Shown: in pieces, positions 3,569 through 64,000 of the stretch | How the letters are laid out: each line of letters begins with the position of its first letter | How positions within the stretch are numbered: the stretch's first letter is position 1 | Assembly: GCA_016182385.1 (NCBI GenBank) | Contig: JACPGV010000011.1 | Location: forward strand, 22,888-86,887 | DNA from: Candidatus Moraniibacteriota bacterium | GTDB lineage: Bacteria; Patescibacteriota; Minisyncoccia; Moranbacterales; UBA1568 | Direction of reading: 5' to 3' | Length of the DNA: 64,000 nt | Translations under genes and position numbers: made by a program | Notes under the pieces: model-generated | Database searches by the model: none | Seen by the model: only the letters and a program-made list of their open reading frames with translations | What the model was told of the DNA's origin: nothing

Positions 3569-4661
3569 TTATTTTTTTTGCAAATATTTTAACGCGCTTT
3601 CTATAAATTCATCAAGTTGACCATCAAGAACTTTGGCCGTGTTGCTTGTTTCTGTTTCTGTCCGATGATCTTTTACAAGGGTATACGGGTGAAGAACATA
3701 CGAACGAATCTGATTTCCCCATTCCGCGCTCTTTTGCTCTCCGCGCAAAATTCGTTTTGCTTCCTCTTGTTCCTCCAATTGTTTCTTTATCAATTTTGAA
3801 CGGAGTATTTTCATGGCCTCTTCACGATTTTGCAACTGCGAACGCTCATTTTGCGAGGAGACAATAATTCCGGTCGGAAGATGCGTAATGCGAACAGCGC
3901 TTTCGGTTTTATTGACGTGTTGACCGCCAGCGCCCGATGCTCGATAGGTATCAATCCGCAAATTCTCAGGCTTTATTTCTATTGCCTTGACATCATCGAC
4001 AACCGGAAGCACTTCAACAGAAGCAAACGAGGTTTGCCGCAAGCTATTGGCATTAAACGGTGAGAGACGTACCAAACGATGAATACCGGCCTCGCTTCGC
4101 AAATAACCATAAGCGTACGCACCGGAAATTTCTATCGTGGCACTCTTGATGCCTGCTTCATTCCCTCGAGACTCTTCTATGCACCGCGCTTGCCAATCAT
4201 GTTGTTCAGCATAACGGAGATACATCCGAAGAAGCATTTCCGCCCAATCCTGAGCATCCACACCACCGGCACCACTCCGTATCGTCACAAGAGCATCACG
4301 CATATCATATTCTCCCCCGAGAAGCGTGCGAAATTCCCATTCATCAATGGTGTGTTTGGCTTTTTTGTACTCATGTTCAAGTTCTGCTACATCAGCCGCG
4401 TCAAGATTGGAAAATTCGGCAAGTGTCTCGAGATCGGAAAGCGTTTTTTCAAGTTTTTCAAAAGAATTTTTTTCACTTTGAAGCACCTCAAGCTCTCGCA
4501 TTATCCTCCCGGCCACCTGCGCATCATTCCAAAAATCAGGACGCGCGCTCATGTCACGCAACTCCTTCACCCGAGTCTCTTTCGTGGAGAAGTCAAAGAT
4601 AGTCCTGCAATTGCAGGAGTTTTTGTCGAAGAACAACGATATTTTCCTGTATCGTACTCAT
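3569..4661 (-). CDS. prfB: peptide chain release factor 2, with programmed +1 ribosomal frameshift
   Basis: GGQ motif SGAGGQHVNKTESAVRITHLPTGI. Upstream frame-0 ORF ATG(4661) encodes MSTIQENIVVLRQKLLQLQDYL, then an in-frame UGA at 4593-4595 inside the classic shifty sequence CUU UGA C. The +1 frame continues DFSTKETRVKELRD... to the stop at 3569. Confidence 0.9.
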
Positions 4662-4890: not shown

Positions 4891-5937
4891 TTATTTCGCC
4901 AGTTCATCCTCAACAGCTTTTTTCAGAGTTTCAAAACCTACCGCACCTGAAAGAAACGTGCCGTTAACAAAGGTTCCCGGTGTGCCACCAATGGAAAACT
5001 GCGCGGCCTCCAATTGATCGGCATTGACCTTATCAAGATATTTTTTTGTATCAAGACAAGTTGCAAATTGATTATTCTGCAAACCAAGACGCCAAGCATA
5101 ATTTTTAAATGCCTGCACCCCACTTGTTTTTGACCATTCTTCTTGTTTCGCAAAAAGCAAAGCGGCATATTGGCGAAACTTTCCTTGATCATGAGCGCAA
5201 AAGGCGGCGAGCGCGGCATTTTCGGCCTGATTATGGAAAGAAAGCGGGAGATGTTTGTAGACAAACGTTACCTTGCCTTCATATTCTTTCAACAATCGTT
5301 CGATATCAAGATGAAAAGCGCGACAGTAGGGACATTGAAAATCCGCGAATTCTACAATTTTTACGGGAGCATCTTTAACACCAAGGATTATGTCGGTATC
5401 ATCAATACGGGGTAATTGTAAATACTTGCCTACCGGCAAACCGATTTTCCCCATATCGAAAAAATATCGCTCATCTTGTTTTTCGAACAAACTGGATGCC
5501 TGAGCGAAAAAATCAGTTTCCTCAATATTTTCAGAAAAAATAAATGCCGGTAATGACTTTATCTGAAATCGCGCAACGAGCAATCTTCCTAATTCAGAAT
5601 CGCCATCTACTGGTGAAGCCTCAAGCGTAGGTATAACACGACGAAGCCACAAAAGCGCCTCGCTCGGATCACACGCGATACAATTTTCATCAGTAATCAC
5701 CTGCACTTCTACCTTTGGTTCATCATAAGACACCCATACCTTACCGGCGGTCTCCACGATAGCGTGGTCACGTAAAGCTCCACCGGAAAAACCTTGTCCG
5801 GTGAGCAATTGACCAAAATCAACAAATAAGCCTCCTACAAACAAACCGGCAAGTAAAACCGCCAAGGCAGCCAAGTTTCTTGCCTTTTGGCGATCGGTTT
5901 CCACGGCTTCAGTTTTTTCAGAAAAAAGTGTTTCCAT
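4891..5937 (-). CDS. DsbA-family thiol:disulfide oxidoreductase (membrane-anchored thioredoxin-fold protein)
   Basis: CPYC active site (FADFQCPYCRAFH); N-terminal TM (LAALAVLLAGLFVGGLF); a second degenerate thioredoxin-like segment upstream (ENCIACD). Start trimmed to METLFSEK (ATG at 5937); the ORF track extends to 5979. Confidence 0.7.
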   Translation of the reverse strand: METLFSEKTEAVETDRQKARNLAALAVLLAGLFVGGLFVDFGQLLTGQGFSGGALRDHAIVETAGKVWVSYDEPKVEVQVITDENCIACDPSEALLWLRRVIPTLEASPVDGDSELGRLLVARFQIKSLPAFIFSENIEETDFFAQASSLFEKQDERYFFDMGKIGLPVGKYLQLPRIDDTDIILGVKDAPVKIVEFADFQCPYCRAFHLDIERLLKEYEGKVTFVYKHLPLSFHNQAENAALAAFCAHDQGKFRQYAALLFAKQEEWSKTSGVQAFKNYAWRLGLQNNQFATCLDTKKYLDKVNADQLEAAQFSIGGTPGTFVNGTFLSGAVGFETLKKAVEDELAK

Positions 5938-5956: not shown

Positions 5957-6415
5957 TTATTGGGAACAGGCTCCGCCAACCTCTTGTCTCGACGAAACAG
6001 AGGAGCCGCCAGAACGTATCAGAAAGTCTTCTAGCGCATCCAAATCATAAGTCTTTTCATTGGACGAAAGGAGATAATCATCAAAACCGATTGTCAAATA
6101 ATTTTCCGCTGACGTTTTGAAAAACGCACCCAAAAAAAGAGCCACGATAAAAATTACCAAAAGCCCTCGCAAGGAGTAATTCAAAGAAAAAAAACTACTA
6201 AAAATATCTTGTGATTTTTGAAGAGAAAAAGCCGTACTTTTTCTGACGGATTGGTATTTTTCACCAATATTTTTCATAAAATTCGAAACAGCTGACCGTT
6301 GGAACGTCTTTGCTTTCTCAAAAATTGTTTCGATTTTCTCCTGCCACTCTTGAAAACGCGCATTATCAAACATAGCGTTTTCCTCCCCCTCCGGAAGGCT
6401 ATTAGTAATTGACAT
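5957..6415 (-). CDS. hypothetical membrane protein
   Basis: 152 aa with one predicted TM (LLVIFIVALFLGAFF); no family recognised. Confidence 0.35.
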   Translation of the reverse strand: MSITNSLPEGEENAMFDNARFQEWQEKIETIFEKAKTFQRSAVSNFMKNIGEKYQSVRKSTAFSLQKSQDIFSSFFSLNYSLRGLLVIFIVALFLGAFFKTSAENYLTIGFDDYLLSSNEKTYDLDALEDFLIRSGGSSVSSRQEVGGACSQ

Positions 6416-6818: not shown

Positions 6819-7394
6819 TTAATATTCTGGCCACAACGTATCCAAAAGATCGTTCCGTCCATCACCGGTTTTGGCGGAATAACGAATGACCGGGGCACCC
6901 GGAAACTCACTCTTGAACGCATAGATGTTCTTTGTCACATCATTTCGCTTGCCTTTATCAGATTTGTTGGCAAGAATAAGAACCTTGCGACCGTATTCTT
7001 TAAGAAGAGCAAATGTTTCTCTGTCGGAATTTTTGGCGCCTACCTCAGCATCAACGACAAGAACTGCCCACGTAAGATTTATCCGCATATCAGCGGCATA
7101 CCATGAAAGATATTTGCCAAGTTTGATGCGTAAGGTTTCCGGTAGTTTTGCATAACCGTACCCCGGTAAATCAGCTATATACCAGCTATCATTAACAAGA
7201 AAATAATTTATTTCTGTTGTTCGACCGGCACGGGAGTTGGAGTGCGCCAAATCTTTCCGTTGGACGATCGAATTAATAACGCTTGATTTTCCCACATTGG
7301 AACGCCCAAAAAAAGCCACTGTTGGACGAGATGGTTCCGGCAAGCCCTCAGATCCTATTACCCCTTTTATGAATTTGGCAGAATGTATCTTCAT
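6819..7394 (-). CDS. engB: ribosome biogenesis GTP-binding protein YsxC/EngB
   Basis: G1 FFGRSNVGKSS, G3 DLPGYG, G4 NKSDK; conserved EngB layout. Start trimmed to MKIHSAKFIKG; the ORF track extends to 7448. Confidence 0.85.
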   Translation of the reverse strand: MKIHSAKFIKGVIGSEGLPEPSRPTVAFFGRSNVGKSSVINSIVQRKDLAHSNSRAGRTTEINYFLVNDSWYIADLPGYGYAKLPETLRIKLGKYLSWYAADMRINLTWAVLVVDAEVGAKNSDRETFALLKEYGRKVLILANKSDKGKRNDVTKNIYAFKSEFPGAPVIRYSAKTGDGRNDLLDTLWPEY

Positions 7395-8222: not shown

Positions 8223-8723
8223 TTATCGTTTCAGAATGAGGCCCTCGAGCACATCCGAGGCGGTGGCGATGAGAGCGGAAACAAAGATGAGAAAAAGGCC
8301 GATAACAACACCACCCGCGATATCCTCCCTTGCTTCACGTTGAATTGTGAAAAAATAAACTTCCGCTCCTAGAATAAAAGCGACGAGTATCATCGCAGAG
8401 TATTTTATTGTCCGCACGGCTTTCGCCGACGCTTCTGAAAACGCTTCATCGTGTCGTATATATCCCAACAATTTGAATGCCTGATAGAGTGCTACGAAGA
8501 ACGCGACGGAAGCGGTATACACGTACCAAAGAAACGGATCGTGGAAATAAATCTGATAAAGCGTGGCGCCAACATTCCTCCCCTCAAGATGGGGCTCCCA
8601 CAATACGAAGACAAGTGTCCCGATACCGAGGGCCACAACGACCGCTTGAAGAAATATCGTCGAGCATCGTTTCATACCGCCAGTATAGCAGGTTTTCGGA
8701 AAAATACTGCAATAATAAGCCAA
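8223..8723 (-). CDS. hypothetical integral membrane protein
   Basis: 166 aa with 4 predicted TMs; no family recognised. Confidence 0.4.
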   Translation of the reverse strand: MAYYCSIFPKTCYTGGMKRCSTIFLQAVVVALGIGTLVFVLWEPHLEGRNVGATLYQIYFHDPFLWYVYTASVAFFVALYQAFKLLGYIRHDEAFSEASAKAVRTIKYSAMILVAFILGAEVYFFTIQREAREDIAGGVVIGLFLIFVSALIATASDVLEGLILKR

Positions 8724-8823
8724 GAAACTAAGGCGGACGTATTGACATCAACCGTAGATCTGCTATAATAGAAACATTCAGACGAAAAGGGATCCGAACG
8801 GCTAATTACCTAAGGAGCCCTTT

Positions 8824-56276: not shown

Positions 56277-57320
56277 TTAGTAATGGTAATCCGTTTCGCC
56301 CTTGAGATCATACTTCATCATCAACTTCACAAGTTCCTCAAAACCCATTTTCGGTCTCCAGCTAAGTTTCCTCTGGGCCTTGGAATTATCTCCGATCAAG
56401 AGATCTACTTCTGCCGGTCGAAAATACATTGGGTCAATTTCCACCAACACTTTGCCCGTAGTTTTGTCCTTACCCTTCTCATTAATCCCTTCACCCTCCC
56501 ATACCAAATCATAACCTGCCTCTTTGAAGGCAAGCTCACAAAACTCCCGTACTGTATGGGTCTCACCAGTTGAAATCACAAAATCTTCTGGCTTCTCCTG
56601 CTGAAGCATCAGCCACATCGCCTCTACATAGTCTTTAGCATAACCCCAATCACGCTTGGCATCGAGATTCCCCAGATAAATTCTCTCTTGTGTTCCATTT
56701 TTAATACCAGCAACACCAGTGGTAATTTTTCTCGTTACAAAAATTTTTCCTCGACGTGGCGACTCATGATTAAATAAAATACCATTACAAGCAAAAAGAT
56801 TATATGCCTCACGATAATTCACCACAATCCAATAAGCATAAAGCTTGGCGACCCCATAGGGAGAGCGTGGGTAAAATGGAGTAGTCTCCTTCTGGGGTGT
56901 TTCCTGGACCTTGCCGAACAATTCCGAAGTCGAAGCCTGATAGAACTTCGTTTTGATGCCAGTCTCTTTGATAGCATCTAGGAAACGAAGCGTGCCCAGG
57001 GCATCAACTTCAGCAGTATATTCTGGAACCTGAAAAGAAATATGCACATGTGACTGCGCGGCAAGATTATATATTTCATCAGGCTTGATCATCTCAAGCA
57101 AACGGTTCAAGTTGCTTGAATCCGTCAAATCACCGTAGTGGAGATGAATCCTCGACTTTTCCGAATGTGACCCTGAAAACATATGGTCAATCCGTTCGGT
57201 ATTGAAGATCGAAGCCGCTCGACGTAAACCGTGCACTTCATAACCTTTTTCCAAAAGAAGTTCTGCCAAATAAGACCCGTCCTGACCTGTAATTCCAGTA
57301 ATAAGTGCTTTTTTTATCAT
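56277..57320 (-). CDS. gmd: GDP-mannose 4,6-dehydratase (copy 1, canonical)
   Basis: [31 protein letters not shown] ... [12 protein letters not shown] ... NHESPRRG ... C-terminal tail; full-length 347 aa, closely alignable with canonical bacterial Gmd. Confidence 0.9.
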
Positions 57321-57826
57321 AAATTTTTTAAGATATTTTTTACTTGGCTGTATCTTAGAACGTGATCCGCATAATGTTCCCGCGTTACAAGTTCTTTTAT
57401 CTCAAACTTCTTCCAATATCGATAGAAAAATGAGTACGCTTTAAAACTCATACCTGGATTGATATAACAATCGGTTACAAGATGAAAAAAAGCCCCGATA
57501 GTTACCCCCCACATCAAAGCTCGTGACTCCCCCGAGACCTCAATACTCACTATAACGATTATCAATAGTATAACGTATTCCCACCCGTGAAACAACACGT
57601 AAATCTTGTCATTTTTAAAAAATTGATACCCTTTTAGAAAATGGGTGAGTCGGAAATTTCTTCCAAAAGCGATAAAATAATCAATAAAATGATCCACATC
57701 AATCAAAACGCCGCCAAAAAACGCCGCCAAAAAAGAAATGGGCTGATAACCAAAGAAAAACCACGTAATAACTCCGGCTAAAAGAGAAAGAAAGAAATGA
57801 AGAAACAGATGAAACATTAAACTCAT
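57317..57826 (-). CDS. hypothetical polytopic membrane protein (possible membrane-bound metal-dependent hydrolase, YdjM-like)
   Basis: 169 aa with ~5 TMs and conserved His/Asp (LHFFLS...[11 protein letters not shown]...FHGWEY...FHLVTDCY). Confidence 0.35.
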
Positions 57827-57862
57827 AACACCCTAAACAAAGCTTCTTTTTCCACAATAAAC

Positions 57863-59572
57863 CTATCGATTGACCGCGCTATCCTCAAGACGCACGGCAT
57901 CCTTTTCCTTGTCTACAGAGGTTTTTGATTTGAAAAAATGACCAGTAAGTTTGCCAAAAACATTCTTCCAAAATTTCTTTGAAGTAAAGCTCACATTTGT
58001 TTTTGTTTGATTTGGATCAAAGTCAAGCAAATGCCCTATAAGTCTCTTTCCTGCTGAATAAAAAAACTTCAAATCATCAATGCTACGAATACTTATAATT
58101 TTTCGAAAAATGAATCGTGGAGAGAAAAAGGCCGAATAAAGATCCTGGGTCAAACTCAAAAGCTGTTCCTGAGTCAAGGGAATCTTCATAACTGATCCAC
58201 GCATATCATAATCATCATAATCTTCCGTTACCAAGAGTCCTTTTTCCTTACACTCTTTCCACAGAGGGGTTCCCGGATACGGAACAACGATCGTCGCCTG
58301 CATGGTGGCAAAATATCCCTTCTTAAAACAGTATTTAGCTACGGCAATGGTCCGTTTCGAATCTTCATAATCTTCCCACGGATATCCAAGCATAATGGTA
58401 GCATGCGGCTCAAGACCAGCCTTTGAAGCCATGCGAGCGCCATTAATAGTGTCAGCTTCTTTTGTTCCTTTATCAAGCTTATCAAGTGTTTTTTGGTTTC
58501 CCGACTCCATTCCATACAAAATAAAACGAAACCCTGCCTTCGCCATGAGATTATAATATTCTTGATTCAAAGCATTAAACCGCATATTACAACCATAAAT
58601 AACCTTTTTGTTGTAACCACTCTCAATCAACAGCTCACAAAATTTCTTGAGTTTTGGACCAATAAAAAGTGTGCCGGCATCATCAAAAATTTCCCGAATA
58701 CCATATTTATCCACTACATGTTTCACCTCTGCAAACAAGCGTTCGGGAGAAAAGCTCCGATACGTACCAAGAGGATTGATCGTATGATCCCATACACAGA
58801 ACGTGCAACGATTCCACCAACAATCACGGCCACTGTACATATACGTTCCTGGTGTATATTTGTAATTTCCGTTTTCATAGGCGTACAATTCCCAACGAGT
58901 CAAATCCCGATCAATAAAAGGCAAAGCATCGAGAGCATGTCGCACCCAATCCGGACCAGAACTATAAATTTTTTCACCTGATGGCAAAGTTGTGGTTTCT
59001 TTTGGAGTGACTTTTATCTCAGTATTTCCTTCACGCCAATATACTCCCCCCTCAAGTTCTTCTCCTCGATAAATATGATTCAAGAGATTTACAATCAAAA
59101 AATCATAATCACCGCCTCGTAAAATATAGTCTATCTTGCTATTTTCAAATTGCTCAAGCGGCATGAAAGTAACATGATCTCCCACCCAAATAAGTTTGAG
59201 GTGCGGCAATTTTTCTTTCAAATCATTAATTTGCTTCCAATGTCTTTTAATAACCGGTGATTTTGATTCTACAAGTAAATACTCGGCCCCCGTGGCGCGA
59301 AGCTCATCAACCCACTGATCATATTCTTTATGCTCAGAAATACCATCCATCCAATAAACTTTATACCCTTGATCCTGAAGATACGAGGCGGCATAAGCAG
59401 GCACCATCGGATAAATGTATGTGGGGGCATTGAAATATTGAAACTGCCGGTTCTGACTCAGAAGTGCTACTCCTTTCTCTGATTTTATAGGCGGATATCC
59501 CACCGCCACCACTATTTCTTTTGGAAGAGGTATCAGATTTTTCTTTTCTTCTTTTGTCTCGCCAGTGTTCAT
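57863..59572 (-). CDS. B12-binding domain radical SAM protein (class B radical SAM, putative methyltransferase)
   Basis: N-terminal Rossmann-like cobalamin-binding region, Cys cluster SGRDCWWNRCTFCVWD, and a downstream radical-SAM TIM-barrel (GYPWE... glycine-rich SAM motifs); ~570 aa from MNTGETKEE (ATG at 59572). The track's 59692 start overlaps the ferredoxin gene. Confidence 0.7.
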   Translation of the reverse strand: MNTGETKEEKKNLIPLPKEIVVAVGYPPIKSEKGVALLSQNRQFQYFNAPTYIYPMVPAYAASYLQDQGYKVYWMDGISEHKEYDQWVDELRATGAEYLLVESKSPVIKRHWKQINDLKEKLPHLKLIWVGDHVTFMPLEQFENSKIDYILRGGDYDFLIVNLLNHIYRGEELEGGVYWREGNTEIKVTPKETTTLPSGEKIYSSGPDWVRHALDALPFIDRDLTRWELYAYENGNYKYTPGTYMYSGRDCWWNRCTFCVWDHTINPLGTYRSFSPERLFAEVKHVVDKYGIREIFDDAGTLFIGPKLKKFCELLIESGYNKKVIYGCNMRFNALNQEYYNLMAKAGFRFILYGMESGNQKTLDKLDKGTKEADTINGARMASKAGLEPHATIMLGYPWEDYEDSKRTIAVAKYCFKKGYFATMQATIVVPYPGTPLWKECKEKGLLVTEDYDDYDMRGSVMKIPLTQEQLLSLTQDLYSAFFSPRFIFRKIISIRSIDDLKFFYSAGKRLIGHLLDFDPNQTKTNVSFTSKKFWKNVFGKLTGHFFKSKTSVDKEKDAVRLEDSAVNR

Positions 59573-59585
59573 ATTGAATTTGATG

Positions 59586-59846
59586 TTATTTTTTTGGATA
59601 AATTTTTTCACCGCCCTGATATACTTCGATCGCCAACACCGAACAAGATTGAGCCGCTTCAATAATTTTTTCAAGACTATCCCAGTCGCCATCTTTTATA
59701 ATGGCAATATTTTTTTCATCAAGATCAAAAGTTGACGGACTATACACGACACACGTAGCGGCACCGACACACTTTTCTCTCAAAATACGAATTTCAATAT
59801 CGCCTTTTTTTACTATCTGGAGAGCCTCATCTTGTTGCATAAACAA
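59586..59846 (-). CDS. ferredoxin (single-cluster Fe-S, Fer4-like)
   Basis: 86 aa; CVGAATCVVYSPSTFDL ... AAQSCSVLAIEV, the C-x5-C...C-(P) pattern of mono-cluster [3Fe-4S]/[4Fe-4S] ferredoxins; 13 nt upstream of the radical SAM gene. Confidence 0.55.
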   Translation of the reverse strand: MFMQQDEALQIVKKGDIEIRILREKCVGAATCVVYSPSTFDLDEKNIAIIKDGDWDSLEKIIEAAQSCSVLAIEVYQGGEKIYPKK

Positions 59847-59931
59847 ACATCACCCGAAACATCGAGACGTCATCAAGAATTACCAAGATACAATACCACA
59901 AAAACTCAATCTTTACTAGAAAACAAGAATC

Positions 59932-60909
59932 CTAACGAAGCTTGCTTTTTAAGTTTCGCACCAACAAAAATCCAATAAGAAAATAAAAGCCGTAAACCAA
60001 ATGAGTGAAGAATATATAGTAAAGAGCATTGAAAAGAATGAAAGTATTTTTCTCAAACCGATACATATCCAGAAAAGATAGGAAAAGAGCTCCCCCGTAT
60101 AAAAACCACCCTATTTCATACCAAAAAAGAAAATGCGGGAAAAGAAAAATCGATCCAGTCCCTACTGTCACAAAAAGAAAAAAGAATGAGGGAATAAAAT
60201 ATTTGATACGCAATGACGTTTCCGGAAATTTTTTCGCGAAAAAACCTCGGTGCAGTCCATACCCATGCACTTGTTTCATATGTCGAAAAAATCCCTCTCG
60301 TCGATGATGATAAACATGAAGCGAAGGATCATACAGGATCTTTCCTTTTAATTTTTTTATAATATTCAAACACAGTTTCGTATCCTCTCCAGGCCAAAAT
60401 CCACAATCAAATCCATCAACATCAGCAAACGCCTGCTTTCGAATAGAAAGATTGACGCTCGGCCAATCGTCAACTAATCGTTTCTTTCCAACAGGCACAT
60501 AACGTTCTGGGGAACCACCGGAGAGAGAACTTAAAAAAACCGCCCCAGACACTTTCTGCCAAAAACTATCATGGGAAGGAGTAATAGCCGGTCCTCCAAC
60601 AGCGATAATAGAAGGATCGGAAAAATCATGATCCAAAATATCCAAAAAATTTTTTTCTGGATAAGCATCGTCATCGACAAAAATAAGTATTTCGCCCACC
60701 GCATCACGTATGGCGAGTGTTCGCTTCTCAGCCGGTCCGCAATGCCCGGTAGCTATTTGTCTTGTTTTTTGCCATGTTTCAGAAGTCGCCTTATCGGGAT
60801 AAATGATAATTTCATAATCATCACGAGATATCTCGAGTGTTTTTGGTACAGCCTCACGAATATAATCATTTATCTCCTTTACTGGAATAATAAAACTGTA
60901 TCGTATCAT
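59932..60909 (-). CDS. glycosyltransferase family 2 (GT-A) with C-terminal TMs
   Basis: FIIPVKEINDYIREAV, the FVDDDAYP D-x-D region and four C-terminal TMs; 325 aa. Confidence 0.75.
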   Translation of the reverse strand: MIRYSFIIPVKEINDYIREAVPKTLEISRDDYEIIIYPDKATSETWQKTRQIATGHCGPAEKRTLAIRDAVGEILIFVDDDAYPEKNFLDILDHDFSDPSIIAVGGPAITPSHDSFWQKVSGAVFLSSLSGGSPERYVPVGKKRLVDDWPSVNLSIRKQAFADVDGFDCGFWPGEDTKLCLNIIKKLKGKILYDPSLHVYHHRREGFFRHMKQVHGYGLHRGFFAKKFPETSLRIKYFIPSFFFLFVTVGTGSIFLFPHFLFWYEIGWFLYGGALFLSFLDMYRFEKNTFILFNALYYIFFTHLVYGFYFLIGFLLVRNLKSKLR

Positions 60910-60911
60910 AG

Positions 60912-61868
60912 CTACACAATGGCAAGTTTATGACGAAAATAATCAACTGTTTTTTGAAGCCCTTCATCAAGTTGCACTTTCGGCTCCCACCCATCAAGCT
61001 TTTCTTTCGCAAGAGCAATATCCGGATTTCGTTGTTTCGGATCGTCGGGCGGAAGATCTTTGTATACAATTCTGCTTTTACTTTCCGGAATAAAATGAAG
61101 GATTTTCTCAGCTAACTCTTTTATGGTGAATTCATTCGGATTGCCGATATTTACAGGACCGACAAATCCATCTTGATTCATCATTCTCATCATACCCTCA
61201 ATCAAATCATCTACATACTGAAAACTTCTTGTTTGAGATCCATCACCATAAATGGTAATATCTTCATTTTTTAAAGCCTGAACAATAAAATTTGACACTA
61301 CCCGACCATCATAAGGATGCATATTTGGTCCATACGTATTAAAAATACGAATAACACGAATATCTACTTTATTTTGACGATAGTAATCAAAAAAAAGCGT
61401 TTCCGCGCAACGTTTTCCTTCATCATAACAGGAACGGAAACCGACGGGATTAACATGTCCCCAATACGATTCTTTCTGCGGTGTGATTTCAGGATCGCCA
61501 TACACTTCCGAAGTAGAGGCTTGAAGAATACGTGCTTTGGTACGTTTTGCCAAACCAAGCATATTAATCGCTCCATGAACAGATGTTTTCGTAGTTTGCA
61601 CCGGATCAAATTGATAGTGAATAGGTGAGGCAGGACAAGCAAGGTTATAAATTTGATCCACTTCTACATACAGAGGAAAAGTAACGTCATGACGCATCAA
61701 ATCAAAACGCGGACAAGTCAAAATATCTAAAATATTATTCTTGCTTCCAGTAAAAAAATTATCAACACACAATACATCGTGTCCCTCTTTCAAAAGACGA
61801 CGACACAAATGAGAGCCTAAAAACCCCGCTCCACCTGTAACCAAAATTTTTTTTTCCGTCATATACAA
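60912..61868 (-). CDS. UDP-glucuronate decarboxylase (UDP-xylose synthase)
   Basis: [40 protein letters not shown] and the YDEGKR catalytic region, alignable end-to-end with UXS/ArnA-decarboxylase-type SDRs; 318 aa. Confidence 0.85.
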
Positions 61869-61907
61869 AACCTTTTCTTTTTAACGAAAATTAATCTTTT
61901 CTCGAAC

Positions 61908-61980
61908 AATGTACAACGGGCGATTAATGACTTCGTTGTGAATACGAGCGATTGCGTCATGACCTTATTATAGTTCATTT
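61908..61980 (-). pseudogene. remnant 3' end of a GtrB-like GT2 gene (duplicated fragment)
   Basis: Minus-strand reading gives ...GHDAIARIHNEVINRPLYIVREKINFR*, a near copy of the C-terminus (IARIHNEVINRPLYIVREEINGIEQ) of the GT2 gene at 63633. 41/45 nt are identical to 63666..63710. Confidence 0.5.
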
Positions 61981-61997
61981 TCTGATGAGATTCCAAT

Positions 61998-62264
61998 TTA
62001 TACCATATCTGAGCCTATATCTATACTTTTGACACTTTCTTTTCTCTGCCTTATACCACACTTGAAGTATTTGAGAGAGGCCGTCGACCGTTCAGAGGAT
62101 AGCCCTCTTTCTTTTTTCCTGTTTTTACTGTCTTTATCTACGAAGATATTGAATGACTGGTTCCGAAAACCTTCACAAAAACTTTTTACTCCGATCTGCT
62201 GTTTGAAAAAATCGACCAACTCTTTTTTATATTTTGAAGGAGTTTCTACCAATCCGTATTCCAT
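61998..62264 (-). CDS. hypothetical protein (88 aa), possibly a gene fragment
   Basis: ORF with a protein-like N-terminus (MEYGLVETPSKYKKELVDFFKQQIG) and a low-complexity C-terminus; lies inside the repeat-flanked insert. Confidence 0.2.
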   Translation of the reverse strand: MEYGLVETPSKYKKELVDFFKQQIGVKSFCEGFRNQSFNIFVDKDSKNRKKERGLSSERSTASLKYFKCGIRQRKESVKSIDIGSDMV

Positions 62265-62353
62265 TTTGAGATCATAATAAGTATCTCATTTAAGGAAAAG
62301 CTGCCTTCATCCGTTCTCCTCCACATACTTCTTACAATTTTTTCCTAATCATT

Positions 62354-63523
62354 TCAGTAAAAATTATCCACCGTCAATAATTTGACTTTCGCTTCGGAAT
62401 ATCTGTTCTTGAAAGCCTTGTTGATAGCTTTTCGCTTGTATTTAATCTCTACTCCGATAATTTCGCTACCTTTTTCCAGTACAACATCTATCTCGGAACC
62501 CTGCTTCGTTCTCCAATAATAAAATTTAAAGCCTCTATCAGAATAGCTGTCCTGTTTTATCAATTCACTGATTATGAAATTTTCAAACAAAGATCCTTTA
62601 TCCACTCTCGAATTCAAATCGGAAAAATCCTCAATCAAGGCATTTCTCACGCCAGTATCGTAGAAAAATATCTTTGCTGATTTCGATATTTCATCTCTTT
62701 TCCTTTTTGAATACGGATATAATCGAAACAAAATGAAGCTCTGCTCAAAAATCTCAATATACCTTTTGACAGTCCGCTGGTCAGTTTTCAAACTACTGGC
62801 CAATTCAGAATAATTTATAAGATTGCCAATCTGGAAAGCCAGAAGTTTCAATAAATTCTTAGCAAGCTTCTTATCCTCAATCAAATGTAATTCGAGAATG
62901 TCCTTGAAAATCAGACTATCCACAAAATTCAACAAGTATTTCTCATCATTCGGATATTTGATAAAATGAGGATACTGTCCATACACCAGAACACTATCCA
63001 GTATGTTCTTTATATCAAACGCATAGAATTGCTCTTTTGGGTTATCTTTTTCATCATCAATAATTTTTTCAAGAATGTTAAAATTCAAACTCTTCTCAAT
63101 ACCCTTCTGGTTCAGATATTCAGAAAAAGTAAGCGGGTAAATATTATAATCGATTTTTCTCCCCGCGAGACTCTCACCCGTCTTGTTTTTTATATGAAAA
63201 GAAGATGATCCGGTGATAATAATCCTCAGATTATTCATCTGATCATACAATATCTTTATAGCTCTTCCGGGATTGTCAAGCAGATGAATCTCATCGATGA
63301 TAATCTCTTTTGCCTTCTTATTTATAATTGTTTTATATGTCTCTATATCATATGTCTCCAATATCTTCTTGATCGGCTCATTATCCACAAGAAAATACTC
63401 CGCGTTCGGAAATATCTTTTTGACTATAGTTGTCTTTCCAGCCTGTCTCGATCCAAGCAAAATAAGTACTTGTTCGTACTTTTTAAAGTGTTCACTCATT
63501 TGGAAATCAAGATGTCTTTTCAT
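62354..63523 (-). CDS. AAA-family ATPase with C-terminal DUF4143 domain
   Basis: Walker A LLGSRQAGKTT, Walker B IIIDEIH; C-terminal region typical of the widespread archaeal/bacterial DUF4143 ATPases; 389 aa. Confidence 0.8.
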   Translation of the reverse strand: MKRHLDFQMSEHFKKYEQVLILLGSRQAGKTTIVKKIFPNAEYFLVDNEPIKKILETYDIETYKTIINKKAKEIIIDEIHLLDNPGRAIKILYDQMNNLRIIITGSSSFHIKNKTGESLAGRKIDYNIYPLTFSEYLNQKGIEKSLNFNILEKIIDDEKDNPKEQFYAFDIKNILDSVLVYGQYPHFIKYPNDEKYLLNFVDSLIFKDILELHLIEDKKLAKNLLKLLAFQIGNLINYSELASSLKTDQRTVKRYIEIFEQSFILFRLYPYSKRKRDEISKSAKIFFYDTGVRNALIEDFSDLNSRVDKGSLFENFIISELIKQDSYSDRGFKFYYWRTKQGSEIDVVLEKGSEIIGVEIKYKRKAINKAFKNRYSEAKVKLLTVDNFY

Positions 63524-63632
63524 AAAAAATATGTCTTTTCGTGTATTATATGTATAAAAAGATATATCTAATTATACATAATAAGGAATATTTGTCAAAT
63601 TCAAACAATACGACAGTCCGTCACTAACGATC

Positions 63633-64000
63633 CTATTGTTCAATACCATTTATCTCCTCCCGCACGATGTAGAGCGGGCGATTGATGACTTCGTTGTGAA
63701 TACGAGCGATATAAAGAGTAATAAAACCAAGAGAAATGAGAACGATGCCGATCAGAAACATATTACTGACACCAAGGATGGCAATGGGCGTAAACATGCC
63801 AGGTGCAAAAAACCAATCCGCAACAAGCATCATCGCAAGCAAGAGTCCGCTTATGAGCGTAATACAAATACCCAAATATCCGGCTAAACGAAGAGGGAGA
63901 AGTGAAAACGATGTAAGACTATTTATCGCCAAACGAACAAGCTTTACATAAGAATATCCAGCATTGCCGTAGAGACGCTCTGGAGCCACGAATTCTATCT
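63633..64000 (-). CDS. glycosyltransferase family 2, GtrB/CsbB/DPM1-like polyprenyl-phosphate sugar transferase; C-terminal ~120 aa only (gene continues beyond window end)
   Basis: Two C-terminal TMs (LLPLRLAGYLGICITLISGLLLAMMLV; ILGVSNMFLIGIVLISLGFITLY) followed by IARIHNEVINRPLYIV, the C-terminal layout of GtrB-type GT2 enzymes. The reading frame is open to the window edge. Confidence 0.55.
   Translation of the reverse strand, partial: IEFVAPERLYGNAGYSYVKLVRLAINSLTSFSLLPLRLAGYLGICITLISGLLLAMMLVADWFFAPGMFTPIAILGVSNMFLIGIVLISLGFITLYIARIHNEVINRPLYIVREEINGIEQ

Follow-up and report, generated by a model that had tools for sequence, protein, structure and literature searches.

How did accessory genes come to lie inside a glycan operon of a streamlined bacterium of the candidate phyla radiation (CPR), framed by two imperfect copies of the end of one and the same gene? 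The question is raised by a stretch of 64,000 nucleotides (nt) from a Candidatus Moraniibacteriota bacterium (GCA_016182385.1, JACPGV010000011.1:22,888-86,887, forward strand), hereafter called the window, in which a glycosyltransferase gene (GT2) and a UXS-like gene are separated by a DUF4143 ATPase gene and a short open reading frame (ORF). An earlier reading of this DNA, made without database searches (the sequence-only reading), had described a 45-bp direct repeat around the insert. We consider it reasonably probable that recombination scars have piled up here, at a hotspot for insertions directly behind GT2 in the Moranbacteria glycan operon, a Campbell-type integration via the GT2 tail having come first and the ATPase having been added later by an insertion-deletion. 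Foreign accessory genes have been recombined into this sugar-synthesis operon at least twice, and the locus is not a new kind of mobile element. The genes of the locus are all on the minus strand, and coordinates are window positions unless the L-number of another locus is given. From the GT2 end to UXS, the features are:

63633..64000, minus strand: 3' part of GT2, codons 196-316 plus the stop codon (63633-63635); the gene runs off the window.
63648..63710, minus strand: repeat copy 1, the tail in use by GT2, reading IARIHNEVINRPLYIVREEIN and then GIEQ and the stop.
63603..63632, minus strand: spacer of 30 nt from the GT2 stop to the conserved ATPase unit, with no similarity to relatives.
63571..63598, minus strand: ATPase promoter of the sigma-70 type, TTGACA-16-TATAAT, 12/12 matches to the consensus.
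62354..63523, minus strand: DUF4143 ATPase of 389 amino acids (aa), with AAA_14 and a DUF4143 PD-(D/E)XK-like domain (Pfam, PADLOC).
62277..62353, minus strand: stretch of 77 nt that separates the DUF3800 remnant from the ATPase stop, with a putative illegitimate joint at ~62277.
62094..62276, minus strand: DUF3800 gene remnant from the 3' part, matching residues 196-263 of the intact 263-aa gene of L007 at 84% identity.
61967..61996, minus strand: promoter-like TTGGAA-18-TATAAT, a consensus match only (10/12), just upstream of the GT2 remnant and pointing to UXS.
61881..61952, minus strand: repeat copy 2, the displaced GT2 tail remnant, reading IARIHNEVINRPLYIVREKINFR and a stop (tblastn, repeat search).
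60912..61862, minus strand: UXS-like short-chain dehydrogenase/reductase (UDP-glucuronate decarboxylase family), the native downstream neighbor of GT2.

The repeat proved to be longer than first described. The segments 61908-61952 and 63666-63710 are identical at 41 of 45 positions, exactly as the sequence-only reading had it, and ungapped extension gave a 63-nt pair (61890-61952 and 63648-63710; 54/63 identical, 86%; spacing 1758 nt) containing a perfect run of 27 nt, ATCGCTCGTATTCACAACGAAGTCAT on the minus strand. When the whole window was scanned for repeats (seed of 12, length of at least 30 nt), this pair was the top family, and the other three families were low-complexity matches of 71-75%. 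By our own order-of-magnitude estimate, which was not computed with a tool, a 27-nt exact repeat is expected by chance about 1e-7 times in 64 kb.

As the window ends within GT2, the complete protein of 316 aa was taken from a Logan contig (L001/L002; GT2 at L001:5879-6829) that is identical to the window and extends past its end. GT2 is a polyprenyl-phosphate glycosyltransferase of the GtrB/PgfS/ArnC-like kind (Pfam Glycos_transf_2, 4.6e-30 on the full protein), and its NCBIfam matches to PgfS and ArnC-like proteins are below the cut-offs. In a tblastn search of the full protein against the window, residues 292-312 matched 61952-61890 at 95% identity, besides the true 3' end; beyond residue 312, the frame of the remnant reads FR and a stop (61881-61883). 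This stop is located 18 nt before the ATG of UXS (61862), with the native GT2-UXS spacing kept, and the remnant plus the UXS head are colinear with the GT2 tail plus the UXS head of relatives having an empty site, the homology beginning abruptly at codon 292. The copy next to UXS, which had earlier been called a gene-end remnant on the basis of its translation, is the displaced last ~24 codons of the GT2 gene. The further suggestion that a paralogous GT2 had been displaced was not borne out; the remnant is an orthologous, native-looking tail joined to UXS. Translation of the remnant was considered for the window and L007 and rejected, as neither remnant has a start codon and both have in-frame stops upstream; in L015, the remnant is in the frame of an ATPase behind the stop codon of that gene, which we take as a coincidence.

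The relatives tell what the site looks like when it is empty and when it is occupied. GT2 was used as a query against GTDB genomes and JGI metagenomes, which gave 160 loci and identified the bacterium of the window as Candidatus Moranbacteria. In five of them (L009, L031, L084, L085, and L088), GT2 is followed directly by UXS, which upholds the earlier statement that the insert breaks an otherwise contiguous GT2-UXS arrangement. GT2 of other close relatives is followed at once by a different native neighbor, namely a 274-aa GT2-family gene (L004 and L087), a GT4 gene (L006 and L086), or GT2b (L010, L089, and L090). Occupied sites with a duplicated tail were found in L007, where GT2, an intact 263-aa DUF3800 gene, a tail remnant, and UXS are arranged in this order (flanking repeat of 46 nt, 85%); in L005, where a 57-nt tail repeat (88%) flanks a 281-aa Bro-N gene starting 2 nt past the GT2 stop; and in L015, where a DUF4143 ATPase with no more than 35% identity to that of the window lies between the copies of a 110-nt tail repeat (88%). 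In another Moranbacteria-like metagenome-assembled genome (MAG; L184/L185), GT2 (79% aa identity) is followed by the same ATPase as in the window (86% aa identity), and the downstream junction consists of a 9-nt GT2-end repeat, GAGCATCAA, a 30-codon 5' remnant of the native GT4 gene, and a second DUF4143 ATPase. It is by this 9-nt repeat that the first ATPase of L184/L185 is flanked. Similar gene-end duplications recur independently around different cargo.

The start of the remnant differs from genome to genome: codon ~280 in L015, 292 in the window, 296 in L005, 298 in L007, and ~313 in L184. Among 13 relatives, furthermore, the tail is the most conserved segment of the GT2 gene at the nucleotide level (mean pairwise identity of 0.79-0.83); of the 56 exact runs of 20 nt or more found between pairs, 17 fall within it. 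The duplications are also not confined to GT2. In L185, which mirrors the GT2-tail case, the 5' head of GT4 is repeated over 87 nt (3908-3994 and 6233-6319; 87% identity), with seven synonymous and three non-synonymous codon differences. Between the copies lies a 2.2-kb insert composed of the second DUF4143 ATPase, an ORF of 102 aa, and an NYN gene that is split. In L007:8984-10576, an intact UXS and an AbiEi/AbiEii toxin-antitoxin pair are followed by a second UXS, in which the first 42 nt, with 81% identity to the intact copy, are fused to the last 78 nt, with 78% identity to it; this second UXS is a whole-gene duplicate decaying by internal deletion. Short tandem repeats were also noted in intergenic DNA around the inserts of two relatives (L015:8311-8345 and 8694-8794; L095:8242-8310), namely AGTAGAA heptamers just past the remnant stop and AACTTGATAA-like 8-9-mers upstream of the GT4 gene.

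The most telling evidence on the origin of the two copies comes from how they differ. In the four long tail pairs taken into the divergence test (window, L005, L007, and L015), 24 of the 33 nucleotide differences are at third positions and only one at a second position, and 23 of the 28 differing codons are synonymous. Neutral substitution is expected to give 23% synonymous changes, and the observed 82% was reached in none of 20000 simulations (0/20000); a model of a selected functional copy and a neutral remnant, in which ~40% synonymous changes are expected, gave P = 6e-6. The differences being mostly synonymous, the copies are therefore regarded as two alleles that diverged while coding, not as a target-site duplication, and the coding-like divergence of the remnants excludes simple decay since one ancient event. 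The earlier remark that the mismatches argue against a very recent target-site duplication is well supported by these counts. Each remnant would have spent most of its divergence time within a working GT2 and have been displaced recently. By our count, synonymous differences also prevail between the window remnant and that of L007, and the spacer adjacent to them has diverged almost to randomness. Concerted evolution of the tails was considered and set aside, because identity within genomes (85-86%) is not above that across genomes (86.5-86.8%).

The insert itself is composite and not the one cargo cassette that had been proposed. The 88-aa ORF (61998-62264) is the remnant of a DUF3800 gene, intact in L007, that was lengthened by the loss of the original stop codon. 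No Pfam match was found for this ORF, and a complete DUF3800 domain is not present; because it aligns only to residues 196-263 of the L007 protein, in which the domain match covers residues 21-196, the ORF is best read as a fragment from downstream of the domain. L001 8186-9526 is colinear with L007 7555-8912 at 72% nucleotide identity, and the block common to both runs from the last 68 DUF3800 codons and a conserved segment after the stop, across a diverged spacer in which a TATAAT is shared, to the GT2-tail remnant and UXS. The ATPase with its promoter and flanks sits where one would expect the spacer between GT2 and DUF3800 and the first ~195 codons of the latter: ~1.35 kb (L001 6830-8185) replace ~0.6 kb (L007 6958-7554), adjoining GT2, which is an insertion coupled with a deletion. 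As the tail duplication of L007 flanks the DUF3800 gene alone, the ATPase need not have produced the repeat. The tail duplication is thus linked to the DUF3800 gene, and the ATPase junction is a separate event. The TATAAT of the promoter-like site is also present in L007 (7862-7889); the site lies where the DUF3800 cassette ends on the right, and it points into the remnant and UXS. Such a site after the DUF3800 cassette could have restored expression of the downstream operon after insertion.

The ATPase is, in turn, a compact unit. Its Pfam matches are strong (AAA_14, 1.5e-43, 100.2 bits with a cut-off of 27; DUF4143, 1.1e-28, 148.7 bits with a cut-off of 28.1), and motifs read by eye from the translation include a Walker A (GSRQAGKTT), a Walker B (IIIDEIH), and a D...ExK signature (EIDVV...VEIKY); DUF4143 has been placed in the PD-(D/E)XK superfamily (PMC3424549). 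Neither a PDB sequence search with the ATPase nor NCBIfam with any of the cargo genes gave a match. The lineage comprises more than 120 clusters (at 90% identity) with 79-87% aa identity, nearly all exactly 389 aa in length, labeled from Kuenenbacteria and Pacebacteria to Aminicenantes and in many cases found on gene-sized contigs, often of 1.3-1.6 kb. Homologues with 83-87% identity are located in unrelated contexts (with Fic, holin, and zeta toxin genes; between dapB and dapA; after DUF354), Fic, zeta toxin, AbiE, and RhuM being among the genes nearby, and their nucleotide similarity to the window ATPase spans the -35 box to the stop codon only. Among sequenced plasmids and phages, we found only distant relatives (at most 37% identity). 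These features (window 62354-63602; L164-L185) suggest that a unit of promoter plus ORF, without recognizable element ends, has spread very recently and widely by horizontal transfer; the ATPase is thus a widely exchanged accessory gene and a candidate defense gene. A homing or transposon-like element aimed at GT2 was considered for the ATPase and rejected, as the homologues in unrelated contexts share only the promoter-to-stop unit. In L174:3180-8800, where the homologue sits in a variable block between dapB and dapA, we also noticed tandem duplicated modules of a 159-aa ORF and fragmented RhuM genes (5205-5415 and 6979-7201, 88-91% identical).

Searches for the machinery of a mobile element were negative. 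A recombinase domain was found neither in the inserts of the window, L005, L007, L015, and L185 nor within ~7 kb in L001, and AAA_14 and DUF4143 are the only Pfam domains of the window insert, with no transposase. No terminal inverted repeats were found at the insert ends; the best inverted pair at a junction (15 nt; 61953-61967 and 61682-61696) is made up of two short palindromes and does not exceed what chance would give. There is no tRNA or tmRNA near the locus, and no Rfam family was matched in 61500-64000 at E up to 1. A fixed att core is also lacking, as no identical core is common to all repeat pairs and the boundary is different in each genome.

These observations can be accommodated by the following course of events. 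In the first step, foreign DNA of a related bacterium, bearing an accessory DUF3800 gene beside the donor's own GT2 tail, would have been integrated by RecA-type homologous recombination through that tail. A Campbell-type single crossover of a circular or circularized fragment would duplicate the homology and leave an intact GT2, the cargo, and a 5'-truncated tail joined to UXS; in E. coli, the single crossover of a circular molecule with a partial gene end is known to duplicate that end, in this case 109-950 bp of lacZ (PMC3240628). Indeed, one complete and one truncated copy of the gene flank the insert in direct orientation, as Campbell-type integration predicts. The repeat copies would then be alleles of different lineages, with no element-encoded recombinase involved, and the variable boundary of the remnant would be the circularization joint of a random donor fragment. 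As the most conserved part of the gene, located at its very end, the GT2 tail is the place where homologous pairing would naturally find its last hold ahead of the variable zone. In the second step, a promoter-plus-ORF DUF4143 ATPase unit would have been joined by insertion-deletion, by which the first ~195 DUF3800 codons were lost and the 88-aa ORF was left. In homology-facilitated illegitimate recombination (HFIR), an insertion is typically coupled with a deletion and the joint has 0-10 nt of homology (PMC3240628); an HFIR-like insertion-deletion is the reading that we favor for both the ATPase/DUF3800 junction and the 9-nt case of L184. Alternatively, an L007-like right-hand block might have been joined downstream of a pre-existing GT2-ATPase pair, a pair of this kind being present in L184/L185. 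The 63-nt repeats could still permit a rare loop-out of the insert.

Several points weigh against this Campbell-type reading. Neither a circular intermediate nor a donor genome was seen, and 46-110 nt of homology with 82-90% identity are little for RecA to work on; on the other side, the 27-nt perfect run in the repeat, and the exact runs of at least 20 nt in which the tail is enriched between relatives, would give diverged partners sufficient unbroken identity to pair by RecA. The ATPase of L184/L185 is flanked only by the 9-nt repeat and looks like the product of a microhomology joint, not of homologous recombination. Inserts without a remnant occupy the same site in L091, where an NYN-domain gene split into two ORFs (1281-1852) lies between GT2 and UXS, and in L095, where the insert is an orthologue of the L015 ATPase. 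Unbiased Campbell integration should also give longer remnants; the lack of such remnants may reflect the loss of inserts between long repeats by loop-out. Either order of the ATPase and DUF3800 events fits the window. Finally, a recombinase was seen nowhere near the locus, but the rest of the genome was not searched for one.

A serious rival, which we judge possible but on the unlikely side, is recombination with one anchor and subsequent decay. A donor fragment with its cargo and GT2, either complete or only the 3' part, would have been anchored by homology upstream, and its far end joined illegitimately within or ahead of the GT2 of the recipient (HFIR, a xenologous displacement in situ); deletions would then have reduced the old GT2 to its last 20-37 codons. 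The second UXS of L007, a full copy cut by internal deletion to head plus tail, speaks for this, as do the window ATPase/DUF3800 junction, an insertion coupled with a deletion and hence a classical outcome of HFIR, and the mere 9-nt repeat at the L184 joint; a similar model has been proposed for effector displacement in the T6SS (type VI secretion system) of Vibrio cholerae, a process that leaves the 3' ends of effectors behind (PMC5361080). The four long remnants of GT2, however, all lie within the last ~110 nt of a 950-nt gene, none keeping a 5' piece, and HFIR as described yields deletions rather than duplications (PMC3240628). Site-specific recombination, one of the routes named by the sequence-only reading, would be improbable in our view. 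The GT2 tail would in this case be the attB of small integrative or cis-mobilizable cassettes, whose attP mimics the gene end and whose integrase is encoded elsewhere. Insertions at the same gene end do recur in at least four lineages, and the gene is restored by a look-alike tail, with a 27-nt perfect core in the window pair; against this stand the lack of an integrase in any insert or within ~7 kb, of a tRNA, and of terminal inverted repeats, the repeat boundaries that vary by genome without an identical core common to all pairs, and the occurrence of the same phenomenon at the GT4 head and UXS as well as of inserts without repeats at the site.

The probability falls further, to very improbable in our view, for an insertion of the ATPase in the manner of a transposon or through a staggered break, with the target site duplicated in situ and the copies drifting apart thereafter. 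Direct repeats do flank the insert, homologues of the ATPase are on many gene-sized contigs, as repeated elements are, and the protein carries a PD-(D/E)XK-like domain (PMC3424549). The differences between the copies are nevertheless overwhelmingly synonymous (P ~6e-6 under the neutral-remnant model), the duplication of L007 exists without the ATPase, and the unit has neither conserved ends beyond promoter and stop codon nor terminal inverted repeats. Repeats of 63-110 nt are, furthermore, far longer than target-site duplications are known to be. Least credible of all is an assembly artifact, raised by the sequence-only reading as its alternative, in which two contigs were collapsed or chimerically joined at the shared 45-63 nt. 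The source is indeed a short-read metagenome, and in one sample the contig breaks inside the ATPase. The structure is reproduced, however, at 100% identity over its whole length in the Logan assembly of run SRR12113421, and the independent assembly of SRR12113422 (L003) agrees with it at 100% over a stretch that starts within the ATPase, takes in the remnant and UXS, and goes on for another 10 kb; being present in the assemblies of two runs, the structure is therefore unlikely to be a collapse. Homologous structures are present in the unrelated MAGs L005, L007, and L015, and copies differing at 9 of 63 positions would not collapse.

We have also entertained a bolder reading, an unlikely one by our own estimate, in which cassettes are exchanged without an integrase. 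Short conserved gene ends of CPR glycan operons, here the GT2 tail, the GT4 head, and UXS, would serve as landing pads, and promoter-bearing single-gene cassettes of defense candidates (DUF4143 ATPase, DUF3800, Bro-N, AbiE, NYN, and IVP) with a hitch-hiked piece of 50-110 nt from the conserved gene beside them would loop out as circles, through recombination of the repeats on either side, and be re-integrated in other lineages by the host RecA. If true, this would be a functional analogue of integron cassettes without integrase or attC. It would also account for the "fresh" look of the remnants, whose divergence is coding-like even in cases of an old cassette (window vs L007).

Beyond UXS, the operon continues in the window with another gene of the GT2 family, a ferredoxin gene, a B12/radical-SAM gene, and further sugar genes. 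Window 57317-60909 is a conserved four-gene block, in which this second GT2-family gene is accompanied by genes for a small ferredoxin of the 4Fe-4S type, a radical-SAM enzyme that binds B12, and a membrane protein of 169 aa without a Pfam match; the block recurs in glycan loci of many CPR genomes (L010, L014, L019, L024, and L089), and its composition hints at an unusual sugar or lipid modification. G+C content is 0.31-0.35 over the insert and 0.38-0.43 in the flanks.

As for the cargo, all three types match PADLOC families of defense candidates: the ATPase matches PDC-S01 (4e-108, over residues 2-388), DUF3800 matches PDC-M04A (1.9e-15), and Bro-N matches PDC-S13 (3.6e-117). The cargo genes are thus candidate anti-phage genes, and the site would behave like a miniature defense-gene hotspot. 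Returning to the Campbell-type reading, the locus would be a dated and layered record of probably anti-phage genes entering, and replacing one another in, an essential-looking operon of a streamlined CPR bacterium, and such entry would take place without recognizable mobile-element machinery. The signature, a short gene-end duplication with mostly synonymous differences, is easy to compute, separates recombination with a foreign allele from transposition, and could be used to map hotspots of gene flow across CPR genomes. The DUF4143 ATPase lineage, spread at 79-87% identity across many bacterial groups according to database labels, is also a good candidate for tests of defense function.

In comparison with known systems, the locus most resembles the experimental products of Campbell-type integration, in which an intact gene, an insert, and a truncated duplicate are arranged in direct orientation by host recombination without an element recombinase (PMC3240628). 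The experimental duplications span 109-950 bp (PMC3240628), whereas the homology here is only 46-110 nt at 82-90% identity and involves natural DNA of another lineage and no plasmid, with the circle not observed. In the orphan tips of Rhs and contact-dependent inhibition (CDI) systems and in the T6SS arrays of V. cholerae, a conserved 5' part is the anchor, incoming modules push older 3' ends downstream to give stacked remnants, and HFIR has been proposed as the mechanism (PMC5361080). GT2 is, in contrast, a housekeeping-type glycosyltransferase and no polymorphic toxin, its displaced tail is no functional variable domain, and the cargo consists of stand-alone genes (ATPase, DUF3800, and Bro-N) instead of toxin tips with immunity genes.

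Integrative elements that target the 3' ends of genes, whether tRNA or protein-coding, restore them, and cis-mobilizable elements keep att sites without an integrase. The window shares with 3'-end integrative elements the direct repeats of a gene 3' end that flank the insert and the intact target, but differs from them in having no integrase or fixed core, in its varying boundaries, and in the occurrence of the pattern also at a 5' gene head. Integrons are likewise a poor match, since no recombinase is near the locus and no notable inverted repeats are at the insert ends. The scar is not a member of toxin arrays, integrase-borne islands, or transposons, and probably not of integrons either. 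Like defense islands and hotspots, the site holds cargo matching PADLOC phage-defense-candidate families; unlike large defense islands, it lies within a CPR glycan operon and takes up one or two genes, whose defense role is predicted only. The locus is therefore a known kind of event in an unusual setting, namely a CPR glycan operon as a miniature defense-gene hotspot.

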